Source: Thermoanaerobaculia bacterium | GTDB lineage: Bacteria > Acidobacteriota > Thermoanaerobaculia > Multivoradales > JAHEKO01 | Length of the DNA stretch: 64,000 nt | Assembly: GCA_049678185.1 (NCBI GenBank) | Contig: JBAUDS010000371.1 | Location: forward strand, 2,466 to 66,465 | Direction: 5' to 3' | Shown here: positions 5,435-44,313 of the stretch, one piece after another | Layout: each line of letters begins with the position of its first letter | How positions within the stretch are numbered: the stretch's first letter is position 1 | Notes under the pieces: generated by a model | What the model was told of the DNA's origin: nothing | Seen by the model: only the letters and a program-made list of their open reading frames with translations | Databases searched by the model: none | Position numbers and translations under genes: made by a program

Positions 5435-6360
5435 CCGACCTGGCGATCGTCTCCCAGGATCTCACTAGACGCTTTGGCAATCTGGTGGCGGTCGACCGGG
5501 TGAACCTGGGCATTCCCAGAGCCCGCATCTATGGATTTCTGGGGCCCAACGGCTCGGGGAAGTCCACTACCATCCGCATGCTGTGCGGGCTTCTGAAGCC
5601 CAGCGGCGGTACCGTCGACGTGCTTGGCTACGCCATGCCGAAAGGCGCCGAGAAGCTACGCCGGCGGATCGGCTACATGACGCAGAAATTCTCGTTCTAC
5701 GAGGATCTGTCGGTGCTCGAGAATCTCGAGTTCATCAGCCGCATCTACGGTCTCGACAGCCGGCAGCGAAAGGAGAGAATCAGAGAGAATCTCGACAAAT
5801 ACGATCTTGCCGATCGCCAGCGGCAGCGCGCCGGTACCCTGAGCGGGGGACAGAAACAGCGGCTCGCCCTGGCCGGCGTGACTCTTCACCAACCGGAGCT
5901 GTTGCTGCTGGACGAGCCCACCAGCGCGGTCGACCCTCAGAGCCGCAGAGATTTCTGGGAGGGCCTGTTCGAGCTCGCGGACCGCGGCACCACCATTCTG
6001 GTCTCCACTCACTTCATGGACGAGGCCGAGCGCTGCCATCGGCTGGCCATCCTCCATCGCGGTGCTCTCGTGGCGGAGGGTGTTCCCCGAGATCTCGCCG
6101 ACGAGATCGACGCGATCGTCCTGGAGGTGGAGACCGAGCGGCCCCGCAGGGCACAACACGCGCTGCGTGAGTCGGGCATTGTCAAGTCTGTCACCCAGCT
6201 CGGCACGCGGCTGCACGTGATGGTCGAGCACCAGACCAAAGATCCCGTGGCTATCGTGCGCCAGACTCTCGAAGCCGCAGGGATCCCCGCCAGCGTCGAG
6301 ATCATCCCGGCCAACCTGGAGGACGTGTTCGTGGCCGCTACCGGCTTTGCCCACGGCTGA
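5431..6360 (+). CDS. ABC transporter ATP-binding protein
   Basis: Walker A GPNGSGKST, ABC signature LSGGQKQR, Walker B LLLDEPT. Confidence 0.9.
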   Translation: MTDLAIVSQDLTRRFGNLVAVDRVNLGIPRARIYGFLGPNGSGKSTTIRMLCGLLKPSGGTVDVLGYAMPKGAEKLRRRIGYMTQKFSFYEDLSVLENLEFISRIYGLDSRQRKERIRENLDKYDLADRQRQRAGTLSGGQKQRLALAGVTLHQPELLLLDEPTSAVDPQSRRDFWEGLFELADRGTTILVSTHFMDEAERCHRLAILHRGALVAEGVPRDLADEIDAIVLEVETERPRRAQHALRESGIVKSVTQLGTRLHVMVEHQTKDPVAIVRQTLEAAGIPASVEIIPANLEDVFVAATGFAHG

Positions 6361-6363
6361 GCA

Positions 6364-7464
6364 ATGCGACAAGCGCTGCAACGAATCTTCGCCATCACCG
6401 CCAAAGAGGTGCGTCAGCTGGCGCGCGACCGGATCACCTTTGGCATGATCATCGGCATACCCCTGCTGCAGATCACCCTGTTTGGATATGCCATCAACCT
6501 CGACGTTCGCCATCTGGACGCGGCCGTGGCGGATCTCGCGGGCACCCAATTGTCTCGCCAGCTGGTCACCGACACGGCGGCCACCCAGGTGGTGGACATC
6601 GTCGCCCAAGTGCGCTCGGCCGAGGAGCTCGAAGTTCTTCTGCGCCGGGGAGAGATCACCGTCGGGATCTTCATTCCACCCGACTTTCCCCGGCGGGTGC
6701 GTGACGACTCACGGGTGTCGGCGCAACTCCTGATCGACGGTACTGACCCGAGCGTCGCCAACATCGCCACACAACTCGCCGACATGCGTTTCGACGTGAG
6801 AAAAGGGAACCCGGCGGGTCGGGCCGCTGTTTACGAGATCCGCAACTACTACAACCCGGAGCGACGCTCGGCGGTGCAGATCGTTCCGGCCCTGATCGGT
6901 GTCATCCTGACCATGACCATGATCCTGTTCACCTCGGTGGCCATCGTGCGTGAGCGCGAGCGTGGCAACCTCGAGCTACTGATCACCACCCCGATTCGCA
7001 ATCTGGAATTGATGATTGGCAAGATCGCACCCTACATCGTCATCGGTCTCATCCAGGTCACTCTCATCCTGACCGTCGGCATGCTGCTCTTCGATGTGCC
7101 GGTGCGAGGGAGTCTGACCGATCTCTATCTCGCCAGCCTGGTCTTCATCGCCGCATCGCTGAGCCTCGGGCTCATGATCTCGACTTTTGCCAAGACCCAG
7201 TTCCAGGCCATGCAGTTGACGTTTTTCGTCTTTCTACCCTCGATTCTGCTGTCGGGATTCATGTTCCCGTTTGACGGCATGCCGGCGGTAGCCCAGGGGG
7301 CAGCCATGCTGCTGCCGCTGACTCACTTTGTGGAGATGGTTCGTGGAATCGTGCTGCGGGGTGCGAGTCTCGAAGAGATGCTTCCCAGCCTACGGGCACT
7401 GATCATCTTTCTCGTCATCACCATGACCCTCGCTGTCCTGCGTTTTCGCAAACGCCTCGACTAG
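6364..7464 (+). CDS. ABC-2 type transporter permease (YhhJ/YbhR-like)
   Basis: Six predicted TM segments C-terminal to a periplasmic loop, typical ABC-2 topology. Lies in an operon with the ATPase. Confidence 0.8.
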   Translation: MRQALQRIFAITAKEVRQLARDRITFGMIIGIPLLQITLFGYAINLDVRHLDAAVADLAGTQLSRQLVTDTAATQVVDIVAQVRSAEELEVLLRRGEITVGIFIPPDFPRRVRDDSRVSAQLLIDGTDPSVANIATQLADMRFDVRKGNPAGRAAVYEIRNYYNPERRSAVQIVPALIGVILTMTMILFTSVAIVRERERGNLELLITTPIRNLELMIGKIAPYIVIGLIQVTLILTVGMLLFDVPVRGSLTDLYLASLVFIAASLSLGLMISTFAKTQFQAMQLTFFVFLPSILLSGFMFPFDGMPAVAQGAAMLLPLTHFVEMVRGIVLRGASLEEMLPSLRALIIFLVITMTLAVLRFRKRLD

Positions 7465-17020: not shown

Positions 17021-17620
17021 ATGTTCGAGAGGATCCTGTTGGGTGTGGGGCGTCGAATGGTGCCGGTTCCCGAGTGTCTATTTCGGACGATGGTCCAGCG
17101 CGATGCGAGGAGGCTCGCCAAAAGGCCGGCCCTCGAGCCCGACGAAAGGCGCGTCCAGCACTTTGCGGTTACGGAGATCCCTCGCCGTCGCGAGGCGATC
17201 ACGCCTGAGGTTTTCGCCGCTGAGCTCGACCTGCCTCCTGATCAGGTGAGCCTGATCCTCGACAAGCTCGAACGGCGCCTGACCTTCCTCTGCCGCAGGG
17301 GAGGGGAGGACGTGGTCTGGGCCTACCCGGTGACAGCCGAGGAAACGCCTCACCAGGTCCGGATGGACGGAGGTGAAGCGTTCTCGGCCGCTTGAGCGGC
17401 CGACGCCGTGGCGACGCCCTTCGTGCAAGGGCAACTGTTGGACAAGGACCTGAGCTGCACAGTCGAGACCGAGTGCGCGATCAGCGGACGGTCCATCGTC
17501 TTCGAGCTCGAGAGTGACCTCGGCTATCGTGTCCGTCCTCCCGCCGAAAAGCCGGTGTTCTTCATTCCCATGATCGACCTACCCAACCTGGACGCGCCGT
17601 GCATCGTCGATGACTTCTGA
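17021..17620 (+). CDS. MerB-like (organomercurial lyase family) protein with an in-frame TGA at 17393-17395 at the position of catalytic Cys96. Candidate selenoprotein, about 199 aa with read-through.
   Basis: ORFs 17006..17395 and 17408..17620 share a frame and are separated only by TGA plus four sense codons. The collinear alignment to MerB places Sec, Asp and Cys at the MerB positions C96, D99 and C117. Start ATG at 17021 has AGGAGG 8 nt upstream. Confidence 0.55.
17393..17395 (+). other. In-frame UGA, putative selenocysteine recoding site
   Basis: Aligned with catalytic Cys96 of MerB. A GC-rich hairpin (cgacgcc-gu-ggcgacg) starts about 6 nt downstream. Confidence 0.45.
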
Positions 17621-17865
17621 ATGAAGAGTGTCTTCTTCTGGTCAGAAGAAGAGGCCCGCACACATCGCCGAGAGAACCCGGAGCCGAAAGGCATCTACCT
17701 CACCCTGCGGCAAGGTGCCATCGTGACCAAACCGATTCAGAGCGTCCTCTTCGGCTTTGCCCAATAGCATTGGTGCGTTGCTGAAGGGGTGTCAGAGGAT
17801 TCTCGGTCAGAGCGGAGCGTCAACTTGGTACACTTCCTCGACTTCCAGTTCAGTGCGAAGGAGCG

Positions 17866-23454: not shown

Positions 23455-23937
23455 CTACTGCCCGAAGCGATTGTCTACCAGTGGTGAGACAGCCCCTTTC
23501 GGGACATGGCAAGTGATGCAGATGTAACGCGCACCCACCACCTGGTCGCCCACGGTCTCGGGGGCGAGACGCAGGTCGGTCAGGTGGCTTTGAGGAATCG
23601 GCGTCGGCTCCCCCTCCACTTTCTCCGCTCCCGTCTCCGGCTCGTGGCAGTCCAGGCAAAGGTGCTCCTGGCGCGTTATGGGCAAGAAGTCGGCAATGCC
23701 GTGGGGAATGACGGGTGGCGAGCCGTCGAAGAACCGGGGCAAGACCGGCTGATCCCCTGGGTCACCACCGGCGGCGGGCATCGGGTCGGGGCTCGGCACG
23801 TCGAAGACGCTGGTCTTGCTGAGCCCGATCTCGGTATCGGGCGTCGACGGCGATGTCTTCTCCTCGGCCGCCAGGTAGGTGACGGGCGCAAGGACCAAGA
23901 GGGCAAGGACTAGGCTTTGTAGATTTTGACCGCGCAT
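23455..23937 (-). CDS. napB: Periplasmic nitrate reductase diheme cytochrome c subunit NapB
   Basis: Two CxxCH motifs (CLDCH, CITCH). Signal peptide from the internal Met ([17 protein letters not shown]). Immediately downstream of napA. Confidence 0.8.
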
Positions 23938-26717
23938 TTTTTGAAATCCGTTTGCTTGGAAATGGGGCAGGTGGCGTCCAGCGTCACCTTGTTGATGAAG
24001 ACTCCTTCGTCGAACCACGGCACAAAGACCAAGCCCCGGGGAACCCGGTCACGGCCATCGGTCTCGACCCGCGCCTGGATCTTGCCGCGACGGGACTCGA
24101 TCCAGGCCAGGTCGTTTCGTCGCAGTGAACGGGCCTCGGCGTCGCGTGGGTGGATGAAGATCTGGGCGGTTGGCATCGCCTGGTGGAGCTGGGGCACCCG
24201 GCGGGTCATCGAGCCCGAATGCCAGTGTTCGAGAACCCGGCCGGTACACAGCCACAGGTCGTAGACCTCATCGGGGCTCTCGGGCGGAGCGGCGTAGGGT
24301 CGGTAGAAGATCTTCGCCCGGCCGGCCAACGAGGTCGTCTCGGACTCGGTGACACCGTTCAGATCACCCTTGGGCAGGCTCTTCATCGCCGGGCCGTAGA
24401 AGTCGAAGGCGCTGCCTTTCTTGGCGTAGGGATCGTAGCGCTCATTGAACCGCCATGGGGTCTCCTTGCCGTCGACCACCGGCCAACGCAAACCCCTGAC
24501 GTCGTCTCGGTAATAGACGTCGAAGTCGGCCAGATCGTGGGCATGGTCACGACCAAACAGCACGTACTCCTGGAAGAGGGCCTTTTCGGGAAACCAATCG
24601 AGGCCGCCGTGTTCCACGGTGTGGTTCTCATGACCTTTGGCCACCGGGTCGGGCCAGGCCATCTGGCGGCTTGTCGGGGTGTCAAAAAGCACCTCGTAGA
24701 GAGAGGTCTCGGGCGAGTAGCCGAGTTCTTTGGCCTCCACGAGGACATCGGGTAGAAAACCGTCTTCGAAGCCTGCCGCGGCGAGACCCGGAATCGGCCC
24801 GCGGCCCCACACCTCCTCGAGCTTGAAGCGCTTGGAGAACTCCAGGATTTGCCAGACATCGCTGCGGGCGTCGCCGGGGGGTGGCACCTGCTCGCGCCAG
24901 GCCTGGGTGCGACGCTCCGAGTTGCCGTAGGCCCCCCACTTCTCGAAAATCATCGCCGAGGGCAAGATGAGGTCGGCTACCTTGCACGACAGGGTCGGAT
25001 AGACATCCGAGACCACGATGAAGTTGTCTTTCTCCCGAGCGGCTTCAATCCAGTGGTTGGCGTTGGCGGTGGCCTGGAAGGGATTGGTCACCTGCACCCA
25101 CAGCCATTTGAGCGAACCGTCCTCGAGGTCCCGCATCATCTTGGTGATGTGACTCCCTACCTTGGGGTTGAGGGTCTTGGCCGGGAGCTTCCACACCTCT
25201 TCGCAGCGCTCGCGGTGCTTGGGATTGGCCACCACCATGTCGGCCGGCAGGCGGTGGGCAAAGGTGCCCACCTCCCGTGCCGTGCCGCAGGCCGACGGTT
25301 GACCGGTGAGAGAGAAGGCGCCGTTGCCCGGCTTGGCCTGCTTGCCGGTCAAGAGATGGACCATGTAGGCCTGCTCGTTGACCCAGGTGCCGCGGGTGTG
25401 CTGGTTGAAACCCATGGTCCAGAAGGAGACCATCTTGCGGCCGCGGTTGGCGTAGTAGTCGGCCAGCTGTCGGAGCTTGGCCTTGTACTCCTCCAGCGGC
25501 TCGTCCGGATCGCCTTTGGAGACCTCGGCTACGAAGTCCAGGGTGTAGGGCTCGAGAGCCCTTTTGAAGTCCTCGAAACTGATCAGCCAGTGCTTGCCGG
25601 CGGTCGCGGCGTTGGCCTGCGGCACGCGGTGGGTTTGACTCGGATCTTTGCCCTGGGCGATGGCCTCCTCGCGGGTGAGCGTCACCTGTCGCTCTCGGTC
25701 CTGGGTTGGCTTTTCGCTGTCGAAGGCGTAGGCGTCGGTGGACCGCATGCCGAAGCCGATGTCGTTGGGTCCGGTGGCAAAAACACAGTGCTTGTCGATG
25801 AACTCCTTGTCGACAGCGCCGCGGGCGACGATCTCGCGGGCGATGTAGTTCAAGATGGCGAGATCGGTCTGGGGCTTGAAGACGATCTCGTGGTCGGAGA
25901 GATCCGAGGAGCGATTGTGGAAGGTGGTGAGGTTGACCACCCGATAGTCGGGGTCGGCGAGACGCTTGTCGATCACCCGCGCCCACAACATCGGGTGCAT
26001 CTCCGCCATGTTGGAGCCCCACAGCACCACCGTGTCGGTGAGCTCGATATCGTCGTAGCAGCCCGCCGGCTCGTCGATGCCAAAGGTCTGGATAAAGGCG
26101 GCGACCGCCGAGGCCATACAGTGACGTGCATTCGGATCGATGTTGTTCGAGCGCCAGCCGGCCTTGACCAGCTTCACGGCGGCGTAACCTTCCTGGACGG
26201 TGTACTGACCCGAGCCCATGATCCCGACCCCGGTGGGCCCCAGCTCGCCGTGGACACGCTTGAACTGCCGCTCCATCTCGTCGAAGGCCTGCTCCCAGCT
26301 GACGGGGACGAAGTCGCCTCGCTTCTCGAACTTGCCTTCCTTCATCCGCATCAACGGCCGCGTCAGTCGATCTTCACCGTAGAGAATCTGGGCGTTGGCG
26401 TAACCTTTGACACAGAGCAATCCGCGGTTGACCGTGTTCTCGCGGTCGCCCTGGATGGCCACGACCTTTCCCTCGTGGGTGGCGATGCGGATGCCGCAGC
26501 CAACGCCGCAAAAGCGACACACCCCCTTGTCCCAACGCCAGTCGTCCTCCTGTCCGTAGGCGGCCACCGGCAGTCCTGCCGTTGCTGCCGCAGCGGCGGC
26601 AACGCTGGCCTTGATGAAGTCGCGTCGCGACAGCCCTGAGATTCCATTCATCGAATTTGCTCTCCTACTCGGTATCCACTCCGGTAGCTTCCAACTCTTC
26701 GAAACGATGCTCGACAA
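23910..26717 (-). CDS. napA: Periplasmic nitrate reductase catalytic subunit NapA (molybdopterin, 4Fe-4S, Tat signal)
   Basis: Twin-arginine [16 protein letters not shown] cluster motif. Near full-length collinear similarity to NapA. Confidence 0.95.
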
Positions 26718-26955
26718 GGGCTGCCGCCAGCACCCCGGGTACCCGTTCGAGGCGCCTTAGACCCTCCTGTTGCTCCTCCAGGGTCTCGGTCTCGAGCACG
26801 GCAACGATCCGCCCGCCTGTCGCATCCAGATAGTGGACCTCCACCCCGGGGAGGGCTTCGACCCGCCGAGAGGTGTCGGCCAGATCCTGCGGGTGAGCGG
26901 TGACCAGGATGCCAGAAAAGTGCATGCTCAGTGTTTCCAGCTGAACTGGATCCAA
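26665..26955 (-). CDS. napD: NapD chaperone
   Basis: About 90 aa, directly upstream of and overlapping napA, with NapD-like motifs ([20 protein letters not shown]). Confidence 0.75.
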
Positions 26956-28322
26956 CCCCAGCTGCCGTTGTCGTCCACGCTGAGGATCTCTCTGGCGGCG
27001 CTGCCGCCATTGAAGAAGGCGAGGCCAGCCCCCAGCCCCAGCCCGTGTTTGAACGACCAGTTGGCCTCGATGTCGATCTCATTGCCCAGCGAGTTGGACG
27101 AGAACGAACTGCCATCGGCCGGCCGACGGACCAAGTAGCCGAGACGTTGCTCGTCGAAGGCACCCGAGCCGCCGTACCAGGCGTCCCGTCTGTCGTCGAG
27201 CGCAAAGGTGTGGAGTCCAACGCGGATATTCGTTTTGGCCCCCGGCTTCAGCAGCACCAGGGCATAGATGTCCTGCAGGTTCGAGAACGCACTGAAATCG
27301 ATTGAGCCGTAAAACTTGTGATTCGTTGGCAGCAGATTGAAAAACGAGGAATGACTGCCGGCCGCCGCGTCGCCGCCCGAGGCCTGCGCGATTCCCAGCC
27401 GGAAGCCAGGGGAGGCGATGGCATCCGGAAACATGTAGCCACCCTCGACGATAAACGCCCAGCCCTCCTGATCGACCGGTCCCCAGTCGCCACGCTGGAA
27501 CGCAGTCCACAACATCAGATCGCGGCGCTCGTTGCCCAGCAGCAGGCTCGCCCCGAGGGTGGTGATCTTGATCTCGCCACCGGCGGCCGCCACCGCGCCT
27601 GGCCGACCGTCGTCGTAGAGCAGGCCAAACAGCTGCAACTCGGCCCCGGAGATCCATTTGCCGTAGCGACCGGTGAGCGTCAGACCGTAGACATCGAGAT
27701 CACCCAGCTGCTCGAACGCGTCGTTGTAATTGACCCCGCCAGCCAGGGGCCGCAGGGCGAAACCGGCGAGATCGGAGCTGCCAAAGTCGACGCCGAAGCT
27801 GAGTCCATCGTAGCGGCGTCCGACGTTGACCCAGTCCCAGTTGCCCACCAAGCGTTCGCTCAAACGGGTTCTTTTGACCTGATCGAGATGCGGAACACCG
27901 GTCAGAATCTCCAGACCACCCTTCCAGCCCTGGCGACCGAGGATCATGCGAAAGCGCTCGGATCGATAGCCGACACTTGCCTCGGCGACCCCCACCTGGC
28001 TGGGATCGGTGTCGCCGTCGTTGGCATCAACGTACACCTTGCCGATACCAAAGGCACCGTCTTCGGGCAGATCGAAGGCGGCGGCTCCCTGTAGAACGCC
28101 GTGGAGGGTCCAGTGTTCCCAGTCGAGATCGAGCCCCACCCGAGCCCGTAGCTTCAAGTAGTCGAATTCGCTTTCCAGGTCCGCATTGCCGGAGGGCGAG
28201 CCCCAGGTCTCCCAACGTACACGGACGTCGATGGGCACGTCGATCTCCGGTCCGGCAGCAAGAGTCGACCCGCTTAGAACCAGGACGAGGCAAGTCGCGG
28301 CGAGCAGAATCCTGGTTGTCAT
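26928..28322 (-). CDS. Outer-membrane beta-barrel porin (alginate-export/AlgE-like family)
   Basis: Signal peptide, alternating amphipathic beta-strand pattern, C-terminal aromatic residues (FSWKH). Confidence 0.65.
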   Translation of the reverse strand: MTTRILLAATCLVLVLSGSTLAAGPEIDVPIDVRVRWETWGSPSGNADLESEFDYLKLRARVGLDLDWEHWTLHGVLQGAAAFDLPEDGAFGIGKVYVDANDGDTDPSQVGVAEASVGYRSERFRMILGRQGWKGGLEILTGVPHLDQVKRTRLSERLVGNWDWVNVGRRYDGLSFGVDFGSSDLAGFALRPLAGGVNYNDAFEQLGDLDVYGLTLTGRYGKWISGAELQLFGLLYDDGRPGAVAAAGGEIKITTLGASLLLGNERRDLMLWTAFQRGDWGPVDQEGWAFIVEGGYMFPDAIASPGFRLGIAQASGGDAAAGSHSSFFNLLPTNHKFYGSIDFSAFSNLQDIYALVLLKPGAKTNIRVGLHTFALDDRRDAWYGGSGAFDEQRLGYLVRRPADGSSFSSNSLGNEIDIEANWSFKHGLGLGAGLAFFNGGSAAREILSVDDNGSWGWIQFSWKH

Positions 28323-43134: not shown

Positions 43135-43273
43135 GCGTAGACTCCTTCGTCGGACAACTTCTCGTGGAAGTCGGTGACTCTCCAGATCTCTTTTCTCTGG
43201 GCTCAGGATACAAAAAACCGCCGGCCGTGATGGCCGGCGGTTCTTGTGTGGGCCTCCTGGAGTCCCGGATCGA

Positions 43274-44248
43274 CTACTGGAGGAGCTTGGAGCCCTCGTT
43301 GACCGCGATCCAACTGTACCAGAAGGTATCGAATCCGGTGAAGGTTTCGATGCCGTCGCTTGCGGTCGTCTTGGCCCGCGCCACCAGCTCGGCGGCATCG
43401 GCGCCCGCGGCCTGCTCGGCGGCGACGAGATAGGCCTTGGTGGATTCGAACAGGGACGCCCCCGGGGTCCGATAGAGAAGAACCAGCTTGCCGTCGAGAC
43501 CCTCCACCTCGAACAGACGACCCCCCTCGTAGGCGGCGTGTGGCACGGCCCAGGGTTGGTCACCTACCCAAAAGGTGAAGATGGCCTCTTTGGGCTCGAG
43601 GCGGTGATCGGTGATCTTCAGGTCGCGGAAAGTCTCATCCGACGAGAAGTAGTTGTCATAAGGGTTGCGCTCGATGTGCTCCACCCCACCTACCGAGAGG
43701 ACCCGGGTGTCGGGGTAACGAGCCACCCAGTCCTTCCAGGTGCTCTTCTCGCCATAGGGGAGCTCCACCAGGTCCGCGCCCTCCATCTTGCCGCCGATGG
43801 CGTCGGAGGTCATGATCGACCACCAGCTATCGGTCTCCCGGTCACGCATGACGAGCGATGCGTCCATGAGGGCACCAGAGGCTTCGAAGTTCAGCTCCTT
43901 GTTGTCGAGATCGCGGTCGTAGACTACGGCCGTGTTGGCCAGCGGTCACCACACGGCGGCAAACTTCTGCCCGCCGATCTGGTCGTTGACCACTTCGTGC
44001 CGATTGAGAAGGTTGAGGCTGTAGGCCCGCGCCTGCCCATCGATCACCACCCCCAGCACCCAGGCGTCGTCGGAGATCTCCGCCTCCGCCGCGGGCACGA
44101 ACCGCGGCTCGAACACCGCGGCGATTCGACCCCGTGGCAGAATCTGCTCCACCCCCGGTGGTAGCTCCTCGGCGGCCGCCGCACAGGCCGCTCCCCATGC
44201 GGCGCCGGCAAGGATGGCTAGAGTGTAGAGGGTTCTTGTCGTCTTCAT
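43274..44248 (-). CDS. DUF3179-like secreted protein with an in-frame TGA at 43946-43948 (candidate selenoprotein), about 324 aa with read-through
   Basis: ORFs 43946..44248 (signal peptide, ...HEVVNDQIGGQKFAAVW) and 43274..43867 (LVMRDRETDSWWS...) are in the same frame. TGA is followed by PLANTAVVYDRD. Homologues carry Y-C-P-L-C at this position, so TGA aligns with the first Cys. Confidence 0.5.
43946..43948 (-). other. In-frame UGA, putative selenocysteine recoding site
   Basis: Aligned to the conserved Cys of a CPLC-type motif. A possible hairpin (cggccguagucuacgaccg) lies about 13 nt downstream in the mRNA. Confidence 0.4.
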
Positions 44249-44313
44249 GGTAGCTCCCTGGAGAAGTCTACCCCGGTGATACGTAGCTGTGGTCGGTAGA
44301 GATTGACTCTTAT

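Follow-up and report, generated by a model that had tools for sequence, protein, structure and literature searches.

An in-frame UGA that almost certainly encodes selenocysteine in a DUF3179 gene of a Thermoanaerobaculia bacterium

Layout of the gene and its domain

Two minus-strand open reading frames, 43946..44248 and 43274..43867, lie in a common frame with one TGA (43948-43946) between them: is this codon an ordinary stop, or is it read as selenocysteine (Sec) within a single gene? The question was raised by a sequence-only reading of the window (the whole stretch of 64,000 nucleotides that was analysed). The shared frame with its single TGA, which that reading had claimed, was seen on the minus strand: from the ATG at 44248 the frame runs through 100 codons to the TGA and is then open to TAG 43276-43274. 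The read-through peptide that had been given, ...HEVVNDQIGGQKFAAVW-U-PLANTAVVYDRD...LVMRDRETDSWWS..., was reproduced exactly. The first ATG of the downstream frame is 43867, 26 codons past the UGA; the sole nearby AAGGAG is placed about 30 nt 5' of it, too distant for a ribosome-binding site, in agreement with the claim that the downstream piece has no such site of its own. Coordinates of the features are collected in Table 1.

Table 1. Features of the DUF3179 locus (positions in the window).
Feature	Position	Strand	Remarks
DUF3179 selenoprotein gene (very probable)	43274..44248	(-)	single frame, 324 codons + TAG; Sec = codon 101
Likely ribosome-binding site GGGAG	44254..44258	(-)	5 nt 5' of ATG 44248; read from sequence
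Putative signal peptide MKTTRTLYTLAILAGAAWGAACAAAA	44171..44248	(-)	cleavage-like site between A-A-A and EE; basic N-terminus, hydrophobic core, AxA motif
In-frame UGA, almost certainly read as selenocysteine, W-U-P-L-A-N	43946..43948	(-)	codon conservation, Cys-form alignment, pN/pS
SECIS-like hairpin	43914..43932	(-)	+14..+32 after UGA; pairing, covariation, synonymous-site constraint
Intrinsic-terminator-like hairpin CCGCCGGCC-AUCAC-GGCCGGCGG then UUUUUU	43212..43240	(-)	33 nt past TAG

The N-terminus (MKTTRTLYTLAILAGAAWGAACAAAA followed by EE) resembles a signal peptide and the DUF3179 protein is probably exported; hydrophobic leaders also begin its homologues. The terminator-like hairpin behind the TAG (-34.9 kcal/mol, z -5.2; none of 200 shuffles equally stable) was absent from the list of the consensus scan. 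Neighbouring genes code for FeoB, a FeoA/DtxR-type protein, a Na/sulfate-type symporter, a small hypothetical protein, a secreted PDZ protein and a K+ channel; the Na/sulfate symporter, the PDZ protein, FeoAB and the K+ channel were met in 3-8 of 80 loci, in the closest relatives only, and no operon clue to function was obtained from them.

The read-through protein (324 residues, Cys in place of the stop) was compared with the profile PF11376 (DUF3179), a check that had been proposed with the sequence-only reading. The match (E 1.3e-57, 196 bits, cutoff 27) runs without a break over the UGA, from residue 41 to 316 and from profile position 3 to 288 of 292; it lies above the gathering score and covers most of the model, which places the read-through product in the family. 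The claim of one gene was thus borne out by the single frame, by the unbroken PF11376 match across the UGA and by orthologues with the same layout.

Matches in a large protein database were of two kinds. Fragments of 190-223 residues covered the part after the UGA only; one of them (P0001) was 100% identical and occurred on 16 contigs. The full-length proteins (292-349 residues, 43-59% identity) read V-W-C-P-L-A-N at the junction, and the column of the UGA was an invariant Cys; three of these Cys homologues (P0004, P0059 and P0094) carry the NCBI name "DUF3179 domain-containing (seleno)protein". The UGA hence aligns with the conserved Cys of the Cys homologues, the pairing looked for in a Sec/Cys family and the placement that had been claimed for Sec; the proposed search for Cys-containing orthologues gave 10 distinct sequences. 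The CPLC motif given in the sequence-only reading was not found in this clade, whose homologues have W-C-P-L-A-N and thus a U-x-x-A motif. Ala occupies the fourth position in the window protein and, with a single exception (Thr in L133), in the 140 sequences. With U-P-L-A, the window protein departs from the U-x-x-C/T motif given in reviews of selenoproteins; this is taken as a clade variant and not as an exclusion, since the Sec position itself is that of the DUF3179 family.

Conservation across the UGA and the candidate SECIS hairpin

The aligned codon was collected from 151 distinct orthologous sequences (distinct 105-nt sequences from genome loci and from a metagenome scan seeded with Cys forms only): 140 TGA, 9 TGC, 1 TGT and 1 TGG. 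The arrangement of frame and TGA is far beyond chance: 140 of the 151 share this TGA at the aligned position. A scan of species representatives (one genome per species, 80 loci) gave TGA in 78 (L072 among them), TGC in one (L043) and TGG in one (L069); these loci came from bins labelled Acidobacteriota (Thermoanaerobaculia, Vicinamibacteria, Holophagae), Krumholzibacteriota, KSB1, Calditrichota, Gemmatimonadota, Planctomycetota, Polyangiaceae and others. Three orthologues of 60% identity were split identically at the TGA, each with an N-terminal DUF3179 frame of 95-97 aa, the TGA and, in frame behind it, the remainder of the domain; two of their contigs are about 5 Mb long.

Selection was followed as pN/pS over random pairs of TGA-containing sequences. 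In frame, the ten codons preceding the UGA gave 0.35, and codons +1..+11, all before any possible restart codon, gave 0.146; in the other two frames codons +1..+11 gave 1.59 and 1.72, and out-of-frame values overall ran from 1.6 to 2.0. In-frame coding constraint directly past the UGA, as looked for in a selenoprotein gene, was thus found, and the low in-frame pN/pS at this place argues that the ribosome reads through the UGA in frame.

Of 26 Pfam-supported window genes, 17 have TGA as their stop, the commonest ordinary one in the window, so that recoding of this UGA would be local and site-specific, and the code standard. Other coding-looking in-frame TGAs in the window, beyond the two of a MerB-like gene (see below), were gene junctions only.

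A stem-loop about 13 nt past the UGA had also been claimed; it is present, kept in the family, and shows compensatory changes. In the window it is CGGCCGUAGUCUACGACCG at 43932-43914, starting 13 nt past the UGA; its stem has 3 bp and 4 bp parted by a C·A mismatch, and its loop is GUC. The family form has 7 pairs (14:32 to 20:26) and an N-G-U-N-U loop with the G-U 22-23 nt past the UGA. Pairing was measured over 131 distinct Sec-form sequences, aligned without gaps: the seven pairs were formed in 89.7% of cells vs 24-57% with the 3' arm slid by 1-3 columns; two-sided changes were found on 3 pairs in 14 cells (GC<->UA at 15:31, CG<->UA/AU at 18:28, CG<->GC at 17:29); and 0 of 500 shuffles came up to the real alignment in pairing, in covariation score or in the number of pair types.

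The coordinated changes of the stem sometimes alter amino acids (Gly GGC together with Ala GCC, GGA together with TCC), and the constraint on synonymous sites runs in the direction needed by the stem: the stem Tyr codon is TAC in 139 of 140 sequences, and the Tyr four codons further on is TAC in 28 and TAT in 15 (79 Sec-form sequences); the stem Ala is GCC or GCT and never GCG, which is frequent in Ala codons just upstream; the stem Thr is ACG in 90 vs ACC in 12. Pair 15:31 is formed in 88% of Sec forms vs 10% of Cys forms (ten Cys sequences), the latter because the +15 base is C in 9 of the 10. Amino-acid conservation could explain much of the conservation of the stem, and the contrast with Cys forms is one of 10 sequences only.

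The isolated 27-nt piece folds into the hairpin (-6.7 kcal/mol, z -1.2) and is not thermodynamically exceptional; since the minimum free energy (MFE) is alike for Sec and Cys forms, folding energy alone does not discriminate between them. RNAalifold (131 sequences) kept the three inner pairs only, and Rfam at gathering thresholds gave 0 matches in the window. A stem-loop directly 3' of the UGA with a conserved G(U) in its apical loop is present, weak thermodynamically and recovered in part by RNAalifold. In the bSECISearch consensus of Zhang and Gladyshev 2005, a stem-loop is said to stand right after the UGA, with a conserved apical-loop G 16-37 nt downstream; the +14..+32 hairpin fits this description.

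An alternative hairpin at +6..+18, favoured by the 45-nt single-sequence MFE and involving the UGA, was considered as the SECIS element and dropped: it is without covariation (55 of 500 and 118 of 500 shuffles reached the observed values) and would sit inside the ribosome.

Selenocysteine machinery, a second UGA gene and the explanations weighed

Genes selA, selB, selC and selD were looked for within the 64-kb window and none was found: ARAGORN gave no tRNA and no tRNA-Sec, and Pfam scans of about 38 window ORFs gave no SelA, SelB or SelD domain. Three ORFs of the size of Sec-machinery proteins (628, 663 and 464 aa) turned out to be a beta-propeller, a rhomboid and an alginate-export protein, respectively. 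In orthologous loci ARAGORN gave a tRNA-SeC (anticodon TCA) behind the TGA-type orthologue, at a distance of 93 nt in L072 and of 2 kb in L076; the genes beside it in these two loci are not selA or selB (M1 peptidase, ECF sigma factor, PDZ protein). Sec decoding in this organism is indirectly supported by these tRNA-Sec genes and by the second UGA gene of the window.

The second Cys-aligned UGA case to which the sequence-only reading had referred is probably a MerB-like gene. Its frame (ca. 17021-17765, plus strand) contains in-frame TGAs at 17393-17395 and 17618-17620. The read-through product matched Pfam MerB (E 6e-14) across both UGAs. By comparison of the family profile with E. coli MerB (91% probability; sequence confirmed against PDB 1S6L), UGA 1 corresponds to the catalytic Cys96 and UGA 2 to Cys159, and the equivalent of Asp99 is kept in the family. 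Both positions are likewise TGA in a homologue of 43% identity; past the second UGA of the window gene stands a strong hairpin, CUUCUUCU-GGUC-AGAAGAAG, which is kept in the homologue. The "W" at the UGA positions of JGI products is an artefact of translation with table 4. With both catalytic cysteines UGA-encoded, this gene may be a more interesting lead than the DUF3179 gene.

For the DUF3179 locus, the in-frame UGA almost certainly encodes selenocysteine, as judged from the sequence comparisons above, and 43274-44248 of the minus strand is very probably one gene for an exported 324-residue selenoprotein in which the UGA is read as Sec by way of a SECIS hairpin. The ribosome would pass the UGA at codon 101 without stopping; the mRNA hairpin 13 nt downstream, with its apical G-U about 22 nt past the UGA, would serve as a bacterial SECIS element and recruit SelB·GTP·Sec-tRNA(Sec), and Sec would enter at W-U-P-L-A-N; SelB-dependent insertion is what we infer. 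Databases store pieces of 100 aa and 197 aa because gene callers take the UGA as a stop. In the literature, Sec insertion was found as a prediction only for any DUF3179 protein, with no report of 75Se labelling or mass spectrometry.

Four other explanations were weighed, and even taken together they are improbable. A pseudogene, or a TGA produced by a sequencing or assembly error (e.g., a mutated TGC or TGG), from which at most a truncated N-terminal peptide would be made, is hardly credible: that gene callers split the gene, and that the codon is TGG in one orthologue and TGC/TGT in ten, all of them one base from TGA, can be put on its side, but the same TGA is met in 140 distinct sequences from many phyla and independent assemblies, it recurs in 16 independent contigs with identical protein, purifying selection is strong directly past it, and an intact terminator follows the full-length frame. 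Termination at the UGA with re-initiation downstream, giving two polypeptides that assemble, is highly improbable as well. The most constrained codons of the region (+1..+11, pN/pS 0.146) come before any start codon; the in-frame ATG at 43867, which this explanation could use, has no ribosome-binding site at a working distance; and the C-terminal piece, entered as a protein of its own in public annotations, has called starts that vary among orthologues, as artefacts would, with products of 190-223 aa. Both the Pfam domain and the fold modelled with high confidence are moreover continuous across the junction, and the 197-aa C-terminal ORF alone gave a model of pLDDT 66 in which the first 76 residues are disordered.

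An altered genetic code with UGA as a sense codon (Trp or Gly) throughout can be given scarcely any weight: the W shown at the UGA positions in JGI products of MerB-like homologues would speak for it, but it comes from table-4 translation of DNA that has TGA, at a locus marked "does not translate to query", and TGA ends 17 of the 26 Pfam-supported window genes. Selenium-free read-through, by a near-cognate Trp- or Cys-tRNA or by a suppressor, the hairpin merely slowing termination, is very unlikely and yet less remote than the other three. The TGG of L069 indicates that the fold may tolerate Trp, and Sec machinery was not seen in the window; against this, Cys stands in 10 of the 11 non-TGA sequences, the signature of a Sec/Cys pair, the position and G-U loop of the hairpin are typical of a bacterial SECIS, tRNA-Sec genes adjoin the orthologue in two genome bins, the MerB-like gene of the window has UGA at both catalytic Cys positions, and DUF3179 proteins are treated as selenoproteins by NCBI and by two reviews.

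Possible function and comparison with known systems

No function was found for DUF3179 in the literature, and no solved structure was related by sequence to the read-through product. A structure model was obtained with the 59%-identical Cys homologue P0004 as stand-in (36-sequence alignment; full-length model with pLDDT 95, pTM 0.91). Foldseek of the model against PDB gave nothing significant, and hhalign against the Rieske ferredoxin T4moC gave a probability of 0.3%, i.e., no profile similarity. In the model, the domain around Sec was judged to have the Rieske beta-fold. The Rieske ligand pattern C-x-H ... C-x-x-H is absent, N-R-H84 ... U101-P-L-A104 standing in its place. On manual comparison, T4moC VLIVNSEEHGVKAYQAM-C45-P-H47-x16-C64-R-A-H67 (sequence confirmed against PDB 1SJG) corresponds to window WVLGVVIDGQARAYSLNLL-N82-R-H84-x16-U101-P-L-A104: His84 precedes Sec101 by 17 residues, as in the Rieske His-to-Cys spacing, and an equivalent beta-hairpin is seen in the DSSP string of the model; in L072 His84 is replaced by Tyr. 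This residue mapping onto T4moC is one that we infer from sequence and model. It suggests that Sec lies in an N-terminal Rieske-like beta-domain, at the end of a hairpin whose Rieske counterpart holds the second cluster-ligand Cys.

Two tentative proposals follow. The N-terminal domain of DUF3179 might be a degenerate Rieske fold without the [2Fe-2S] cluster, keeping one His and the second ligand Cys, the latter changed to Sec almost universally in this clade; this is offered as a conjecture. It is likewise possible, though doubtful, that the exported Sec would provide the reactive atom, or a ligand, in a periplasmic site for redox chemistry or metal/metalloid binding on the Rieske-like scaffold of the model. 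If true, a Rieske scaffold would here bear an exported Sec-His site, which could be a mononuclear metal, metalloid, chalcogen-binding or redox site, of a kind undescribed for the DUF3179 or Rieske families, and a first mechanistic hypothesis for DUF3179 would be at hand; the Rieske-like domain around Sec is a starting point for the function of this uncharacterised family. A Rieske-like fold of DUF3179 was not found mentioned in the literature searched.

DUF3179 is listed as a selenoprotein family with the motif UxxC/T in two reviews (PMC9312934, PMC13188914). Both cite for it the work of Zhang & Gladyshev 2007 on Olavius symbionts (PMC1976440); the name DUF3179 was not found in the portions read of that paper. 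As DUF3179 is a catalogued selenoprotein family, the finding is correct but already known, and it adds little to the list of such families. For annotation it means that this gene and most of its relatives, now stored as two fragments (about 100 aa and 190-223 aa), should be merged as one selenoprotein each; for the W-U-P-L-A-N clade it means that selenocysteine is the rule, in Acidobacteriota as in several other phyla.

Compared with Rieske domains (T4moC, PDB 1VM9/1SJG; naphthalene dioxygenase ferredoxin, 2QPZ), DUF3179 has no detectable sequence or profile similarity; Asn82 replaces the first Cys and Ala104 the second His. With no more than two Rieske ligands out of four left, a [2Fe-2S] cluster is not to be expected. 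DUF3179 is not a member of the Rieske family; the resemblance is one of fold only.

The hairpin is like a bacterial SECIS (E. coli fdhF type) in being a stem-loop inside the coding sequence directly 3' of the UGA, with a 13-nt spacer, an apical G-U about 22-23 nt past the UGA and compensatory changes in the stem; it differs in being short (7 pairs), with a frequent central mismatch and marginal stability (-6.7 kcal/mol), and in lacking a bulged U and a detectable lower stem.

The MerB-like protein of the window can be set beside SaoL (NF040728), a known MerB-like selenoprotein whose only Sec, part of a C-U motif, is at the Cys159 position (bioRxiv 10.1101/2022.07.06.499078): both are MerB-related with Sec, or the second UGA, at the position of MerB Cys159, but the window protein scored 41 bits vs a cutoff of 140, has F-U-M instead of C-U, and carries an extra UGA at the Cys96 position.

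With the known DUF3179 selenoproteins the window protein shares the domain, the placement of Sec at the conserved Cys that starts U/C-x-x-X, and the N-terminal leader; it differs from them in that its clade has U-P-L-A, without the second Cys/Thr of the UxxC/T of the reviews, and in that the Sec form is the rule in this clade (140 vs 10 Cys) and not the exception.

Gene calls and downstream hairpin of the DUF3179 clade

Public gene calls for the DUF3179 clade (entries P0001–P0120; in the window, 43274-43867 and 43946-44248) were mostly split into an N-terminal ORF of 95–100 aa and a C-terminal ORF of 190–223 aa, the start codons of the latter being inconsistent; the split calls are a systematically mis-annotated selenoprotein. 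The window gene is followed by a very stable terminator-like hairpin (Table), of which there was no report in the consensus terminator scan.

Features of the window and of orthologue-bearing loci (L) from other genome bins
Feature	Location	Strand	Remarks
MerB-like gene	window 17021-17765	+	in-frame TGAs at 17393-17395 and 17618-17620
Molybdopterin oxidoreductase	window 23910-26717	-	935 aa, TAT signal; intact
Alginate-export-like outer-membrane protein	window 26928-28322	-	adjoins the molybdopterin oxidoreductase gene
Terminator-like hairpin, U6 tail	window 43212-43240	-	3' of the DUF3179 gene; z -5.2 at -34.9 kcal/mol
tRNA-SeC gene, anticodon TCA	L072 6867-6961	-	93 nt downstream of TGA-type DUF3179 gene
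tRNA-SeC gene, anticodon TCA	L076 9086-9182	-	~2 kb downstream of TGA-type DUF3179 gene
'tRNA-Pro (cgg)', 98 nt	L030 8125-8222	+	ARAGORN call, ~1.3 kb downstream of DUF3179 gene

tRNA genes and deviating orthologues

The two tRNA-SeC genes were located in related genome bins (L072 and L076); the surrounding ORFs encode an ECF sigma factor, an anti-sigma-like zinc-finger protein, a PDZ protein and an M1 peptidase, and neither selA nor selB was found among these neighbours. The length of the L030 'tRNA-Pro' is atypical of tRNA-Pro and typical of long-arm tRNAs, e.g., tRNA-Sec.

Deviations were observed in three orthologues. At the Sec/Cys position of L069 (CBDDCF010000036.1, Acidobacteriota bin; DUF3179 match 6001-6915) TGG (Trp) was read, AAVW-W-PLAN, which is either a true Sec-to-Trp replacement, one base off TGA, or a base-calling error. 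In L072 (5716-6780) the His of the H-E-V-V-N-D motif is replaced by Tyr (LNLLNAYEVVND) and the UGA is retained; this His (His84 of the window protein) is invariant apart from L072, and the replacement is relevant to any His-Sec active-site model. The translation of L026 departs at ~6235-6300 after PLANTAVVYDRDVSS and reads NETGSEAAADAARV vs the conserved ELNFEASGAL, suggesting a frameshift or assembly error.

MerB-like gene with two UGAs

The sequence-only reading had proposed two Cys-aligned UGA candidates in the window, the other of which is probably the MerB-like gene. Its two UGAs fall on the two catalytic cysteines of E. coli MerB, Cys96 and Cys159 (hhalign, probability 91%), and Asp99 is conserved in the same alignment; a strong GGUC-loop hairpin lies downstream of the second UGA, and a homologue of 43% identity (L167) carries TGA at both sites. 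No in-frame TGA was present in the molybdopterin oxidoreductase gene of the window.

In JGI products of this family (P0127–P0144, L167) Trp stands at both TGA positions. Genetic code 4 had evidently been applied to these contigs, because the DNA does not translate to the listed product. A short metagenome contig bearing a selenoprotein gene can be wrongly assigned a Mycoplasma-type code.

SaoL, a known MerB-like selenoprotein, contains only one Sec, in a C-U motif, whereas the window gene has two UGAs, and the score of its protein falls short of the SaoL cutoff. This gene may represent an uncatalogued double-Sec clade.
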